A DNA stretch of 64,000 nt from contig OX638152.1 of NCBI GenBank assembly GCA_951804945.1, positions 41,912,001-41,976,000 of the forward strand, given 5' to 3'. Below are positions 23,109-33,885 of this stretch, piece by piece. The position numbers and the translations under genes are program-made. The DNA comes from Podarcis cretensis. Lineage: Eukaryota. Every line of letters begins with the position of its first letter. Positions within the stretch are counted from its first letter, which is position 1. A model generated the notes under the pieces. The model saw only the letters and a list, made by a program, of their open reading frames with translations. It ran no database searches and had not been told where the DNA came from.

Positions 23109-25459
23109 TTTTGTATTGTTTTATTGTTGTTAGCCGCCCTGAGCCTGGCTTCGGCTGGGGAGGGCGGGATATAATTAAAATTTATTATTATTTGGGATTA
23201 GTTATGACCCCCAAATGCACAGGGAAAATTAAGTGTTACAACTAGGAAAATTGTATTTCTCCTTCTGGCTTTCCGTCTTATGTTTTAGAATGAAAGTAGG
23301 TGACCTCATCTTTTCAATGCTGTCATTGGATAAAAGATGAGAGATAAACAAAACATCAAATTATCCTTTAATTTAGAATGAGATCACATACTTGAGACTT
23401 TGAGGCTTTCACCTTGTGTTTGCTTAGATGGTTCTAGTAGGTATTCTAAGGACACCTAAATAGTGTGTGTGCATGATGGAGAACTGTGCCACACCTATTT
23501 AGCATGTGCCAAGTCTATCCAACATGGGTTGGCCCTGATAGCTCAGAATAAACTGGGAAGAGTGAACTTTCCTGAACTTCTTATTGTAGGCAATTTCAAC
23601 ACATAGTGAGAACAGGGTGGGGGCACACTTCCTATTTTAATCAAGAAGTGGCTCTAAGCTAGTAAGTTAAGTATTGACAAATTAGCCCAAGGCTCCATTA
23701 GAGGTCCTTTGGACACAGATTTTCTTCCTCCCTACATTGATCCAAGCACTCGGCTAACACTTCCTGCCCACCCGCTTCATTCAACTACTGATCCATAGGA
23801 CACATTTTCATGTATATTTGCTACTTTAAGGTCTTGTAAAAGCCTTTTCAGAATATTCAGTGTATCTACTGTACTGCTTCAACGCACATAACATAATGCA
23901 CATTCATTATATACAATTCAGCATACAAAAAAGGCAAGCATTTATAGTGTTTCAATAAAGCTCCCGGTATTGAAGAGTGCAATTCTTTAGCAGTGAAGGC
24001 AGCAAAACCGCCTTTCCAATGAAGTGTATTCTTAAAGCTCTGTAGATGTCCAAAACCATGACTATTACTAATCTTACTACAGATATATGTAGTAAGATAT
24101 ATGTAGTCCACGACTCTCTTTAAGGCTTCTATAGATAATCAGCAGCTTTAATAATATATCTGTAGCTGTACTGCAGGTGGGAGAATCCAACATTTGAATA
24201 TTTCCCAACACTAACCTGGTGTGTTTAATAGGAACTATGGTTCAATGTAACATGAAAACTGGGCCAAAAACTACCACAGCTCAACAATATGGGATCAGGA
24301 ACAGGGCTAATCTAGAAGCCTTCTCTATGACATACTAGATTCACTCAACCAGATAGCTTCCTTTCTTGTAAAGAGGGGAAACTATTAAACATTTGACTTC
24401 CCAACCTGCAGAATAAAGATGTACAGTGCAGGAACAGATACATCACATAATTCTGTTGATTATGCATTTTCTCCTCAAACATTTGTGTAGCGAGATCTTT
24501 TAGAAAAAATTCTATATTGCTGCCTTCCTTTGTTATAGGCAATTCAGCTGTGGAAAAAAATCACAAAGTCCTGTACAACTCTGAAAAATAAAACTTTGTT
24601 CTGAGAGAGCAGGATATCACACACTATGATCACCGAACCTGGCCTCCATTGACTCTTTACCATGAACTTTCTAAATTTATATCTGGTTTTGCTACTATGT
24701 GATAGAAGGGATCTAAAGAACTAGCCTTTTAATTGTATGTTTGCATTTTTAAATTAGCATCTTAAGGGCCTTTGTTTTTTCTTTGAACATCCAACCCATA
24801 CTATATCACAATCTACTTTGGAAAATGCCCTGTTTCAAAAAGTGGTTTCCAAAGAGAGACAGGAGAGACTAATTTGAGATTTAGTTGCTGAAAACACCCC
24901 TTGAGATCTGGGCACTAGCCATATTTCTTCTTTTCAACCGCAAACTATTTTTATCTGTTGTAAATTGTGAGTCCTGTGAAGCCCACAACAGAGTTCCGTG
25001 TAATCTGAAAGTTGTTTCCACCATTTTAACAAGAAATTCCCCTAAAATGTTTTCTGTCAAAAATGCTCCATTTAATACAAAAATTAACTAAATAAAGTAC
25101 TTTTTGGAAAAATTGACACACTGCAATTAAAGGAAGTATAATAAATAGGATTGTTGATTGTATGGTCTCCAAGACTCAAACGGTCAAGTACTTTCTTTTT
25201 AAAAAAGGAAAAAAATGTATTAGCTAAACTAATGTTCACAGTCTCATGAAAGTAGTTGGCATTCCCTCTTTGCATAGAAAAACAATTTAAGTTGCCTAGA
25301 TTTAAAGCCAAATGTAGGACAACTTCTACTAGATATATCTGGTGAAAAGAAGTATGTATTAAGTTTACTTTTGTAAAGTATGTCTTCTAAGTCTGCTCTT
25401 CCTTGCCTCAAAATACTCTAAAATCCTTATGCCACAGTTTACCTTCACTATGGTGAATA

Positions 25460-26461
25460 TTGTTGTTGGCATTCATCTGTCTTGAGAGAGAATGGAGTGC
25501 GCCTCCAGAAGTGAAATCAAACTGCTGTGTTAGCAGCACCGAAGTGATTTCCTGGGCTGTGTGTATGGCAATTCTGGACTGCCAGATGAAAAAACCTCCC
25601 TCTCGGCTTTGCTGATATGGTCCAAAGGAAAGCAGAGCATTATGTTTGGCACCAGCTTGGCTGAAAGAGGCATACAAGGCACCATCCAACTATCTTAAGG
25701 ACCTCACTCCAGATTTGTGTAGGGTTTACTCATTAGTCTTTTCTTCTGCCCAAGAGATCTCTACAAGGCAGCAGAGGTTTAACATCAGGGTGTATGGAGT
25801 GTTAGGCGAGGTGTAGTACCTCTGGTGTGAGACACATAGTGCTCCTTCTGAGATACAGTGGTGCCTCGCAAGACGAAAATAATCCGCGAGTCTCTTCGTC
25901 TAGCGGTTTTTCGTCTTGCGAAGCATCCCTATTAGTGGCTTAGCGCTATTAGCGGCTTGGAAAAAGGGGGGAGGGAAAAAACTCGCAAGACTCACAAGAC
26001 GTTTTCGTCTTGTGAAGCAAGCCCATAGGGAAATTCGTCTTGCGAAGAGCCTCGAAAAACGGAAAACCCTTTCGTCTAGTGGGTTTTTCGTCTTGCGAGG
26101 CATTCGTCTTGCAGGGCACCACTGTAGTTTGTCCACCTTTCATTCCCACTCAACTCTCACCTGTGGCTCCTGGAAGCTGCAAGCATGTGGCAGCAGCCAT
26201 AGCCCGGAAAATAGCTTCAATTGGCCAGCTAAACCAGGTGAGCGTAACCAATGGGTCTCAAAGCCTTGGTGAGTTAGGGACTTCCCCTGCATGTGAAGAC
26301 AGGCTCCAGTGGACTGAATGGACAAGATCATAGTGAATCCAACAGTCAAGAAGGCAGTTTCCGCATGTGCTATAGAGGGAAGTGAGGTGCAGATGGGGTT
26401 TGTCCACCTGGGAAGGTAGCCCATCTAAAAGAAGGAAAACTCTGATCCTAAACCTTTGCTT
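25460..26461 (-). mobile_element. RTE-derived non-autonomous retroelement with 5' inversion, interrupted by a MITE
   Basis: RTE-type tail ...GACAGATGAATGCCAACAACAA on the minus strand (25460-25788) and the 5' part inverted on the plus strand (25788-26461). TSD TGGTGAATA / TGGTGAGTA (25451-25459, 26462-26470). Confidence 0.72.
25856..26124 (+). mobile_element. Tc1/mariner-pogo MITE, family B
   Basis: TA|CAGTGGTGCCTCGCAAGACGAA...TTCGTCTTGCAGGGCACCACTG|TA. Confidence 0.9.
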
Positions 26462-27175
26462 TGGTGAGTAGAATACAGCAATATATACATGGCTACATTC
26501 CCACTAATCTGCATCAATAAAATTCGACCCATTCCAGCAAAATTCACACTTTTTCTATTGCCACACAGATCAAGAAACCAATTATGTAGTACTTTTTACT
26601 TTAAAATAATGTTGATTAGTATTACTATTTTCTATTAATTATTACTGTAAGATTGTTATTAACCATTAGTTCCATACAATTGTAGCACCAACAGCCAAAA
26701 TGGTTTCTATGTAGTTCTCACACATAACATGTGGCAGTGATAGAAAGAAGAAAAGCGGAATGCTACCATACAATGTAAAATGTATTTATTATACCTGAAG
26801 GTTAAAGAAATTAAAGTCAATGATTTGATTTACCAAACCAGAGGATCTATTTTCATATTAAAATACCAAGAGCTTTAGGTAGATGTAAACCATGTAATTT
26901 GCCTTATACAAATTACACAGAAGCTAATTTGGTCCAGTGAAAACCTTCCACAGAAGGGTGCCAGAATCCAAAGAACTATTTTAGACATACATACTCAAAA
27001 ACTTGAAGTTGCCCGGTGGAATTTTTTTACTTTACTTTTTACATCATTCAACACCAGACTCTCCTCCTCTCCCAATGCTGTATCACAAACTGTTTTTTGA
27101 GGATTCTGAGTTTGCTGTGTTTAAGAAACAAAATAAAATAATAATAATAATAATTTATTATTTATACCCCGCCCA

Positions 27176-29760
27176 AGGCAGGGTATAAATACGAATCCAA
27201 GGCAGACCTTTTAACATCACAGTAATCCAAGTTTATGCACCAACTACTGGTGCTGAAGAAACTGAAATTGACCAATTCTATGAAGACTTGCAACACCTTA
27301 TAGAAGTGACACCAAAGAAGGATGTTCTTCTCATTATAGGGGATTGGAATGCTAAAGTAGGGAGTCAAGAGATAAAAGGAACAACTGGCAAGTTTGGCCT
27401 TGGAGATCAAAACGAAGCAGGGCAAAGGCTAATAGAGTTCTGTCAAGAGAACAAGCTGGTCATCACAAACACGCTTTTCCAACAACACAAGAGACGACTC
27501 TACACATGGACATCACCAGATGGGCAGCATCGAAATCAGATTGATTATATTCTCTGCAGCCAAAGATGGAGAAGCTCTATACAGTCAGCAAAAACAAGAC
27601 CTGGAGCTGACTGTGGCTCAGATCATCAGCTTCTTATAGCAAAATTCAAGCTTAAACTGAAGAAAGTAGGAAAAACCACTGGGCCGGTAAGATACAATCT
27701 AAGTCAAATCCCTTATGAATACACAGTGGAAGTGAGGAACAGGTTTAAGGATTTAGATTTGGTGGACAGAGTGCCTGAAGAACTATGGATGGAGGCTCGT
27801 AACATTATACAGGAGGCAGCAACGAAAACCATCCCAATGAAAAGGAAATGCAAGAAAGCAAAGTGGCTGTCCAATGAGGCCTTACAAATAGCGGGGGAGA
27901 GAAGGCAAGCAAAATGCAAGGGAGATCGTGAAACATACAGGAAATTGAATGCAGATTTCCAAAGAATAGCAAGGAGAGACAAGAAGACCTTCTTAAACAA
28001 GCAATGCAAAGAAATAGAGGAAAGCAATAGAATGGGAAGAACCAGAGATCTGTTCAAGAAAATTGGAGATATGAAAGGAACATTTCGTACAAAGATTTCC
28101 ATAATAAAGGACAAAAGTGGAAAGGACCTAACAGAAGCAGAAGACATCAAGAAGAGGTGGCAAGAATACACAGAGGAATTATACCAGAAAGAAATGGATG
28201 TCTCATATACCCCAGGTAGTGTGGTTGCTGACCTTGAGCCAGACATCCTGGAGAGTGAAGTCAAATGGGCCTTAGAAAGCACTGAAAATAACAAGGCCAG
28301 TGGAAGTGATGGTATTCCAGCTGAACTATTTAAAATTTTAAAAGATGATGCTGTTAAGGTGCTACACTCAATATGCCAGCAAGTTTGGAAAACTCAGCAG
28401 TGGCCAGAAGATTGGAGAAGATCAGTCTACATCCCAATCCCAAAGAAGGGCAGTGCCAAAGAATGCTCCAACTATCGCACAATTGCACTAATTTCTCACG
28501 CTAGCAAGGTTATGCTTAAAATTCTACAAGGAAGGCTCAAGCAGTATGTGGACCGAGAACTCCCAGAAGTGCAAGCTGGATTTAGAAGAGGCAGAGGAAC
28601 CAGAGACCAAATTGCAAACATGCGCTGGATTATGGAGAAAGCTAGAGAGTTCCAGAAAAACATTTACTTCTGCTTCATTGACTATGCAAAAGCCTTTGAC
28701 TGTGTCGACCATGGCAAACTATGGCAAGTTCTTAAAGAAATGGGAGTGCCTGATCACCTCATCTGTCTCCTGAGAAATCTCTATGTGGGACAAGAAGCTA
28801 CAGTTAGAACTGGATATGGAACAACTGACTGGTTCAAAATTGGGAAAGGAGTACGACAAGGCTGCATTTTGTCTCCCTGCTTATTTAACTTATATGCAGA
28901 ATTCATCATGCGAAAGGCTGGGCTGGATGAATCCCTAGCCGGAATTAAGATTGCCGGAAGAAATATCAACAACCTCAGATATACAGATGACACAACCTTG
29001 ATGGCAGAAAGTGAGGAGGAATTAAAGAACCTTTTATTGAGGGTGAAAGAGGAGAGTGCAAAATATGGTCTGAAGCTCAACATCAAAAAAACGAAGATCA
29101 TGGCTACTGGTCCCATCACCTCCTGGCAAATAGAAGGGGAAGAAATGGAGGCAGTGAGAGATTTTACTTTCTTGGGCTCCATGATCACTGCAGATGGTGA
29201 CAGCAGCCACGAAATTAAAAGACGCCTGCTTCTTGGGAGAAGGGCAATGACAGGCCTAGACAGCATCTTGAGAAGTAGAGACATCACCTTGCCAACAAAG
29301 GTCCGTATAGTTAAAGCTATGGTTTTCCCAGTAGTGATGTATGGAAGTGAGAGCTGGACCATAAAGAAGGCTGATCGCGGGAGAATTGATGCTTTTGAAT
29401 TCTGGTGCTGGAGGAGACTCTTGAGAGTCCCATGGACTGCAAGAAGATCAAACCTCTCCATTCTGAAGGAAATCAGCCCTGAGTGCTCACTGGAAGGACA
29501 GATTGTGAAGCTGAGGCTCCAGTACTTTGGCCACCTCATGAGAAGAGAAGACTCCCTGGAGAAGACCCTGATGTTGGGAAAGATGGAGGGCACAAGGAGA
29601 AGGGGGCAACAGAGGACGAGATGGTTGGATAGTGTTTTCGAAAGGTTACCAGCATGAGTCTGACCAAGCTGCGGGGGGCAGTGGAGGACAGGAGTGCCCG
29701 GCGTTCTCTGGTCCATGGGGTCACGAAGAGTCGGACACGACTAAACGACTAAACAACAAC
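27176..29760 (+). mobile_element. BovB (RTE) LINE, 2.6 kb, 5'-truncated, inserted in an L2 tail
   Basis: 10-bp TSD ACCCCGCCCA (27166-27175, 29761-29770) and tail CTAAACGACTAAACAACAAC. Confidence 0.96.
27189..29657 (+). pseudogene. BovB ORF (partial APE endonuclease + reverse transcriptase)
   Basis: Open frame from 27189 (IRIQGRPFNITVIQVYAPT...GDWNAKVG...IDYIL...SDH; RT motifs QAGFR, FIDYAKAFD, GVRQGCILSP, YTDD). It lacks the N-terminus and has a frameshift near 29641. Confidence 0.93.
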
Positions 29761-33131: not shown

Positions 33132-33885
33132 GTGCTGGTTTGACCTATAAAGCCTTAAATGGCTCAGGACGTTAATAACTCAAGGACCTCCTCATATGAA
33201 CTGATAAGGACCCAGCAATCATAATCTAAGGCCCTTCTTTGTGTGCCACAAGAGGTCTGTGGAGAGTGGCAACATGACAATGGGCCTTTTCTGCGGTGGC
33301 TACCCTTTTGTGGAATGCTCTTCCCAGGGAGGTTCGCCTGCCGCCTTCATTACGTATCTTCAGGTGCCAGACAAAAATGTTTTTCTATAACCAGCCCTTT
33401 GGCTGATTAACGTTCTATGGCTTTTTAAATGTGTTACTTTGTGAGGGGCTATTGGTTTGTTATTGCTGTAAGCCGCCTTGTGATCTTCAGATGAAGATGC
33501 ATATACAGTGGTGCCCCGCAAGACGAACGCCTCACAAGACGGAAAACCCGCTAGACGAAAGGGTTTTCCATTTTGGAGGCGCTTCACTAAACGAATTTCT
33601 CTATGGGGTTGCTTCGCAAGACGAAAAAATCTTGCGAGTCCCCGCGGGTTTTTTTCGCTCCCCCCCCCTTTCCTAAGCCGCTAAGCCGCTTATCAGCTGT
33701 TCCGCGGATAAGCCGCCTCTCAGCTGATCGCTAAAAGCCGCTAGACCGCTAATAGCGCTAATCCGCTAATCCGTCAATGGGCTTGCTTCGCAAGACGAAA
33801 AAACCGCTAGACGAAGAGAATCGCGGAACGGATTAATTTCGTCTTGCGAGGCACCACTGTACAAATTTAACAAATAAATAATAAA
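33132..33885 (+). mobile_element. L2 LINE 3' fragment interrupted by a MITE
   Basis: GTGCTGGTTTGACCTATAAAGCCTTAAATGGCTCAGG...TGTAAGCCGCCTTGTGATCTTCAGATGAAG...TA[MITE]TACAAATTTAACAAATAAATA. Confidence 0.75.
33506..33859 (-). mobile_element. Tc1/mariner-pogo MITE, family B
   Basis: TA|CAGTGGTGCCCCGCAAGACGAA...TTCGTCTTGCGAGGCACCACTG|TA, with internal CCGCTAA repeats. Confidence 0.9.

Follow-up and report, generated by a model that had tools for sequence, protein, structure and literature searches.

A predicted HDV-type ribozyme fold at the 5′ end of an ORF-less, RTE-derived retroposon family in Podarcis cretensis

The window, i.e., the whole 64-kb stretch of Podarcis cretensis DNA that was analysed, contains one worn and half-inverted copy of an old, dispersed, protein-less retroposon family. 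The parts of this copy are given below in window positions, with "family nt" for nucleotides of the family majority.

25448–25459, no strand: left copy of the target-site duplication (TSD), 12 bp, matching the right copy at 10 of 12 positions
25460–25467, minus strand: (CAA)n microsatellite tail of the element, read from the sequence and shared by other copies
25460–25788, minus strand: 3′ segment of the element, family nt ~389–743, in which the end of an RTE 5′ UTR is joined to an RTE 3′ end; short subfamily
25784–25791, no strand: inversion junction, at which there is microhomology; A25787 belongs to the 3′ segment, and ribozyme G1 is absent
25788–26458, plus strand: inverted 5′ segment, family nt 2 to ~410, interrupted by a MITE
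25856–26124, no strand: the MITE, ending in terminal inverted repeats and flanked by a TA duplication (25854–25855 and 26125–26126)
26459–26470, no strand: right copy of the TSD, which jointly with the left copy encloses both halves

In other copies of the family, the three pieces seen in the window are collinear over about 743 nt. In the window copy, the two halves stand head to head, the breakpoint carries a duplication of about 20 nt, and a single 12-bp TSD lies outside both; the inversion geometry, as read from this arrangement, is that of twin priming. Twin priming is a mechanism known from L1, and 5′ inversions of this type are known mostly from mammalian L1. The same inverted geometry with the tail was found at 5 of 152 other loci of this RTE-mobilised family (L035, L047, L051, L073, and L113), and an opposite segment without the tail occurs at three more (L048, L071, and L096). 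The inversion junction is covered by contigs from two other runs, and both the insertion and the junction are present in the contigs of a second organism. It has been reported that RTE TSDs mostly measure 10–12 bp (PMC6007223). The initial annotation had described the ribozyme-bearing half of an ORF-less RTE derivative, which stands, but it omitted the 5′ inversion, and the 3′ half was found on the minus strand at 25460–25788; similarly, A25787, which it had counted as a P1 base, belongs to the inversion junction, and the 5′ segment begins at G2 (25788). The MITE at 25856–26124 is where it had been placed, with 24-nt arms that are 92% complementary when the TA duplication is counted, and it is missing from the 29 other family copies of the first alignment. 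A second copy of this MITE lies at 33504–33861 of the window on the minus strand.

The searches covered a genome of 51 contigs totalling 1.51 Gb. With 26125–26470 as the query, there were 4241 first-look candidates; 40 of these were scored, and the 39 other than the window copy were 79–83% identical. An exact 26-mer occurred 64 times in the genome and a tail pattern 239 times, while reversed controls gave none; since the tail pattern matched 2 of 60 independently chosen copies, the 239 matches suggest a total in the region of 7,000 tails, though the margin is wide. The family is about 743 nt long, comprises several thousand copies, and departs from its majority by 12.2% on average. The copies share a deletion junction and fall into a short and a long subfamily (54 and 8 of 62 classified copies, respectively). 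A 5′ boundary shared among copies, which had been proposed as a check, was found at the first P1 base: among 77 copies reaching nt 1–32, the start is nt 1 in 29, nt 2 in 15, and nt 3 in 4, so that 48 of the 77 begin within nt 1–3 of the first P1 strand. Starts at nt 4–8, nt 9–10, and nt 14–32 account for eight copies each. No conservation was detected upstream of the 5′ end, where no column has a base above 45%. The cluster at nt 9–10 lies beside a tandem P1 strand (nt 10–16), which is suggestive, although noticed post hoc. A 5′ peak would also be expected from any fixed start, such as an internal promoter. The element holds no ORF, and the earlier claim that it lacks a Pol III promoter is borne out, with A and B boxes absent by simple pattern and neither Rfam nor ARAGORN giving a hit at any of 12 family loci; no tRNA-, 5S-, or 7SL-derived head was found at these 12 loci. 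The family may already bear a name in Repbase or Dfam.

The partner LINE was sought by several routes. Exact tail patterns failed, returning only copies of the element (30 of 30 and 28 of 28 loci). The search succeeded through a diverged tail in the flank of L190, which pointed to an RTE LINE that carries a C-terminal zinc finger and has 2000 candidates in the same genome. A pattern at the end of the 5′-derived part gave 56 matches, about 17 of which run on into LINE-specific sequence. Of 97 candidates from a search with the LINE 5′ region, 30 loci were taken, and three of them (L306, L309, and L316) carry the ribozyme-bearing 5′ part collinear with the start of the endonuclease ORF, with two more being rearranged. 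In addition, the element and the LINE have a common 3′ end, of about 100 nt in the long subfamily and about 60 nt in the short one, with aged copies 75–87% identical to the majority; the long subfamily still has the final ORF codons of the LINE together with its 3′ UTR, of which the short subfamily lacks about 70 nt. Against the intact element L330, the 3′ end shows 92% identity over 38 nt. The collinear ribozyme and the common 3′ end identify the element as an internal-deletion derivative of an RTE, as the initial annotation had supposed for its ORF-less RTE derivative. No diagnostic difference separates the three ribozyme-bearing LINE copies from the element.

A protein search for the partner yielded one further decayed RTE, L163, whose tail differs, while the intact ORFs that it returned were only 30–31% identical, and the eight whose 5′ regions were inspected are all BovB-like. 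Besides its different tail, the decayed family at L163:1501–3640 possesses a zinc finger and a long TSD, and it falls in the clade of L369 and L383. An intact BovB-like RTE at 27189–29657 of the window was likewise rejected as the partner because it belongs to a different clade; it has an 822-aa open frame with EN and RT domains, and intact 1036-aa frames of BovB-like RTE are numerous elsewhere in the genome. More internal deletions are seen at L283 and L200, where the ribozyme-bearing 5′ end is joined to longer LINE 3′ parts. Matches to the LINE 5′ region are enriched on contig C19 (12 of 42 rows), as might suit a repeat-rich sex chromosome.

Within the element, a 5′-UTR-derived strand (family nt ~646–662) and a 3′-derived strand (~688–708) are predicted to form a 16-bp bulged helix of −34.9 kcal/mol, located within 25495–25560 of the window on the minus strand. 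When the counterpart helix was compared with ORF windows in 7 testable loci of 11, none of 300 windows was as low in L330 and 8 of 300 in L332, while it is weak in L331 (27/300), L341 (18/300), and L345 (17/300), and absent from L334 and L340. Such a helix may join both ends and favour the deletion.

The ribozyme lies in the inverted 5′ segment, and all its parts in the window copy are on the plus strand:

25788–25793, plus strand: P1 5′ strand, family nt 2–7, by descriptor and pair count
25796–25802, plus strand: second, tandem P1-like strand, family nt 10–16, with one change in the window copy; in the family majority either register satisfies the descriptor
25794–26153, plus strand: J1/2, about 96 nt in the family and folding as a long hairpin; the MITE lies inside it in the window copy
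26154–26164, plus strand: P2 5′ strand, 10 nt plus a terminal U
26165–26167, plus strand: P3 5′ strand
26168–26195, plus strand: L3, 28 nt, with a UCC start, a conserved G at 26173, and an inserted 6-bp hairpin (26176–26194)
26196–26207, plus strand: P3 3′ strand, then P1 3′ strand (26199–26205) and P1.1 GG (26206–26207)
26212–26227, plus strand: P4 hairpin, 5 bp in the family, with one pair broken in the window copy
26228–26232, plus strand: J4/2 with the candidate catalytic C26229, a C in 74 of 86 copies
26233–26244, plus strand: P2 3′ strand (terminal A, bulged C, and 10-nt strand), with one outer pair broken in the window copy

The nested double-pseudoknot order is present in the window copy, in which P3, P1.1, the inner P2 pairs, and C26229 are unbroken. 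Most parts lie where the initial annotation had put them, namely P3 (26165–26167 with 26196–26198), the start of L3 at 26168, the P1 3′ strand, the GG of P1.1, and C26229, and its count of five of seven P1 pairs agrees with the present one. For P2, all eight of the pairs that it gave (26156–26163 with 26235–26242) are present, but the true extent is 10 bp plus a terminal U–A pair. It had called P4 degenerate; in the family P4 is a 5-bp stem, one pair of which is broken in the window copy. The decay that it had suspected is evident: the window copy is likely inactive, judging from its 5′ inversion, the missing G1, the MITE in J1/2, and the 5 of 34 broken pairs. It fails the strict HDV descriptor with or without the MITE, there is no match on either strand of the 64-kb window, and neither the window stretch nor the 12 family loci give an Rfam HDV-family match. 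Its identity to the family majority is about 87% in the 5′ segment, which is that of an average copy. A two-sided change in its L3 hairpin was considered as a subfamily marker and rejected, as it was found in 1 of 75 other copies.

The fold was then read in the family majority, which passes the strict descriptor in nested double-pseudoknot order. P1 has 7 bp from nt 1 (7 of 7), J1/2 about 96 nt, P3 3 bp, P1.1 2 bp, and P4 5 bp; P2 has 10 bp and a terminal U–A pair past a bulge, and J4/2 has five bases including the C. It had been asked earlier whether a consensus restores P1 and P4, and the majority restores both, together with P1.1, P2, P3, and the J4/2 C. The descriptor was composed with the family sequence already in view, and it matched 1 of 3000 dinucleotide shuffles anywhere and 0 of 3000 when anchored at nt 1. 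HDV-like ribozymes are characterised by U-C-C in L3, which contributes to P1.1, a conserved G in L3, and a catalytic C in J4/2. All three are present in the family, as judged by comparison with an R2 ribozyme of the same genome, while the L3 is not the short loop of 7–8 nt of HDV and R2 and measures 28 nt with a hairpin in both the lizard family and L369. The in-genome R2 ribozymes were found by Rfam search below the cut-off, and the five letters of their J4/2 are identical to those of the element. They belong to R2-type 5′ ends at the 28S rDNA target on contig C15 (~31.4–33.8 kb), with canonical HDV-like ribozymes at L131:1435–1591 and L132:1447–1574; in L131 the P1 5′ strand lies within the 28S flank, and RT homology is found between the L131 and L132 ribozymes. 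The family does not reach the gathering score of the Rfam HDV clan, a test that is insensitive here because the genome's own R2 ribozymes also score below it (30 against a 44-bit cut-off). In a pseudoknot-free ensemble, P1 receives 0.06, P3 0.19, and P4 0.16, and a competing helix is favoured, so misfolding could slow the ribozyme. No covariation was seen within the lizard copies or between the long and short subfamilies, where variation is mostly CpG decay; core sites decayed by 8.6% compared with 9.4–10.1% in other regions, and the core pairs and the C are retained together in 3 of 25 full-length copies. Because the lizard copies decay neutrally, covariation was sought in RTEs outside the genome.

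A total of 80 related RTE loci were collected from metagenome contigs, and the sequence upstream of the ORF was examined in 25. The descriptor matched 4 of the 25 upstream regions (L330, L341, L369, and L362, the last of which looks like chance), none of the 25 reverse complements, and none of the 25 ORF stretches. Many of the contigs behind the 21 regions without a match may stop short of the 5′ end, and the same descriptor did not detect the R2 control until P2 was relaxed to 4 bp. Pairs were counted in descriptor-parsed segments, since L330 came out of register in the MAFFT alignments A2 and A3. Compared with the lizard majority, L369 has five two-sided changes (one in P1, one in P2, and three in P4) and three one-sided compatible changes, two of them in the L3 hairpin, with 0 of 34 pairs broken; random placement of its 13 changes would break about nine pairs, and none of 200,000 trials left all pairs unbroken. 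L330 has two two-sided changes (P2 and P4) and 0 of 28 pairs broken (P about 0.0025). Taken together, two outside sequences from metagenome assemblies give seven two-sided and three one-sided compatible changes with 0 of 62 pairs broken, at a J1/2 identity of about 56–59% in the same comparisons.

L330 is an intact EN-RT element of 1048 aa in which similarity to the family begins at P1, and in quick ORF trees it groups with the lizard LINE fragments (SH-aLRT 92). Its L3 has the canonical 7 nt, so the L3 hairpin is an optional module. L341 has a complete HDV fold of different sequence, also with a 7-nt L3, and L340 and L383 have near-complete folds with imperfect P1 or P1.1. The ORF of L369 belongs to another clade (33% identity to the lizard LINE compared with 48% for L330), while its L3 hairpin is shared with the lizard family; a clade of L330 and L369 was rejected (p-AU 0.0011 in a quick tree of 11 rows). 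That the hairpin occurs in two deep RTE clades could be due to exchange of the module, to an ancestral hairpin that was lost, or to a chimeric assembly. Ribozyme features do not track the ORF tree in L369 and L383 as against L330, L340, and L341. Core identities of 0.80 between L330 and L383 and 0.77 between L330 and L369 do not support dividing the ribozymes cleanly into two types.

At the level of sequence, the family, its bipartite RTE origin, its 5′ boundary, the majority fold, the compensatory changes between RTEs, and the absence of both an ORF and a Pol III head are established. We consider it highly probable that the window holds a decayed, 5′-inverted internal-deletion derivative of an RTE, the first ~195 nt of which form an HDV-family fold that likely freed the ancestral RNA at G1. 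HDV ribozymes cut immediately before the first P1 base (G1). Master copies would have been transcribed passively from host promoters, and co-transcriptional self-cleavage would have released an RNA with a 5′-OH end at G1 out of host read-through transcripts. The protein of a partner RTE would then bind the 3′ tail and insert the RNA by target-primed reverse transcription, perhaps aided by the helix between the 5′-UTR-derived and 3′-derived parts. The window copy would have originated by twin priming, later received the MITE in J1/2, and then decayed neutrally.

It is also conceivable, with a small probability, that the fold is real and yet vestigial, protective, or protein-binding in the lizard family, and that the start at G1 goes back to an internal Pol II promoter within the 5′ UTR. 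Pol II very probably transcribes bipartite LINEs, and LINE 5′ extremes drive transcription (Kojima 2018, PMC5786205). Promoter elements could sit in the G-rich 5′ end and the long J1/2, and the atypical 28-nt L3 and the predicted competing helix would also suit a fold that does not cleave. This reading is at odds with the retention of all core pairs and the J4/2 C in the majority and of the L3 hairpin with compatible changes in L369, and copy starts within 1–2 nt of the P1 G1 are what the HDV cleavage rule predicts. That the pattern arose by chance in a G/C-rich repeat end is very improbable: the window copy does fail the strict descriptor, Rfam is empty, and the descriptor was tuned to the sequence, but the shuffle result, the ten structure-compatible changes without a broken pair in two outside RTEs, and the HDV folds of different sequence upstream of other RTE ORFs (complete in L341, imperfect in P1 or P1.1 in L340 and L383) argue against it. 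Least probable of all is that the host kept the window copy as a working intronic or intergenic ribozyme, a CPEB3-like exaptation. The intact P3, P1.1, inner P2, and C26229 and the presence of the insertion and junction in the second organism's contigs would fit such a role, but G1 is lost, P1 and the fold at large carry broken pairs, a 269-bp MITE sits in J1/2, and its identity to the majority matches the family average.

HDV-like ribozymes at the 5′ ends of RTE elements were reportedly described by Ruminski in 2011. Such ribozymes have been documented at the 5′ ends of RTE, R2, R4, Baggins, and L1Tc (PMC6765202, PMC3774820, and PMC5786205). The lizard element is similar to the RTE/R2 type, as far as the sources cited describe it, in the P1-P1.1-P2-P3-P4 pseudoknot, the long structured J1/2, the predicted cleavage site at the 5′ junction, and the J4/2 of R2, but it differs in the 6-bp hairpin after the conserved L3 G, with an L3 of 28 nt compared with 7 nt in L330, L341, and R2, and also in the bulge beside the terminal P2 pair and the tandem second P1 5′ strand. 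The L3 hairpin makes the ribozyme a structural variant of a known design.

The arrangement itself is already known from R2 SIDEs, bipartite RTE derivatives, and RTE ribozymes (PMC3414825 and PMC5786205). R2 SIDEs of Drosophila are likewise ORF-less, arose by an internal deletion that left a 5′ HDV-like ribozyme joined to the parent LINE's 3′ end, and have no Pol III promoter (PMC3414825); according to the sections cited, they are rare and confined to rDNA, while the lizard element is RTE-derived and dispersed in thousands of copies and retains ~680 nt of 5′ UTR. Bipartite non-autonomous RTE LINEs, such as MAR4_MD, RTESINE2, WALLSI3, RTE-N2_Lch, and Bov-A, consist of an RTE 5′ UTR and 3′ end without an ORF and have a microsatellite tail (PMC5786205). 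The lizard element has the same features, with a 5′ UTR from the first base, the LINE 3′ end, no ORF, a common deletion junction, a TSD, and a tail; in contrast, the cited sections of that paper give no ribozyme fold for any individual family and mention no lacertid family of this type. tRNA-headed SINEs with RTE tails (Sauria SINE, Bov-tA, and AviRTE SINEs) are also RTE-mobilised with a bipartite body of 5′ UTR and 3′ UTR, but the lizard element is without a small-RNA head and begins at the first base of the LINE itself (PMC4844689, in the parts cited). No publication on the lizard family or the L3 insertion was found in the literature searched, with most subscription papers and Repbase/Dfam outside its scope. 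Judged by its sequence, the lizard element is a genuine RTE-derived mini-element headed by a genuine HDV-type fold, of R2-SIDE design and a candidate for cleavage. An extended reading, tentative and on balance rather doubtful, is that of a high-copy vertebrate retroposon whose start is set by ribozyme cleavage and not by a promoter, with a functional L3 hairpin module, two P1 strands giving cleavage at nt 1 and nt 10, and a ribozyme module that passed from one deep RTE lineage to another separately from the ORF.

The lizard family and L369, which carry the L3 hairpin, and L330, which does not, form a natural pair on which the tolerance of the HDV active-site loop can be tested directly. RTE UTRs are employed in gene-insertion tools (PMC13708176), and a defined 5′ ribozyme and a 5′–3′ UTR helix are therefore of practical interest. 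Kojima (2018) proposed that 5′ ribozymes explain why bipartite RTEs retain the extreme 5′ end of the LINE (PMC5786205). The shared boundary and the covariation described here provide sequence-level support for the idea that RTE LINEs can give rise to promoterless SINE-like derivatives by means of 5′ ribozymes, and the lizard family indicates that a design of the R2-SIDE kind reaches thousands of dispersed copies in a vertebrate.
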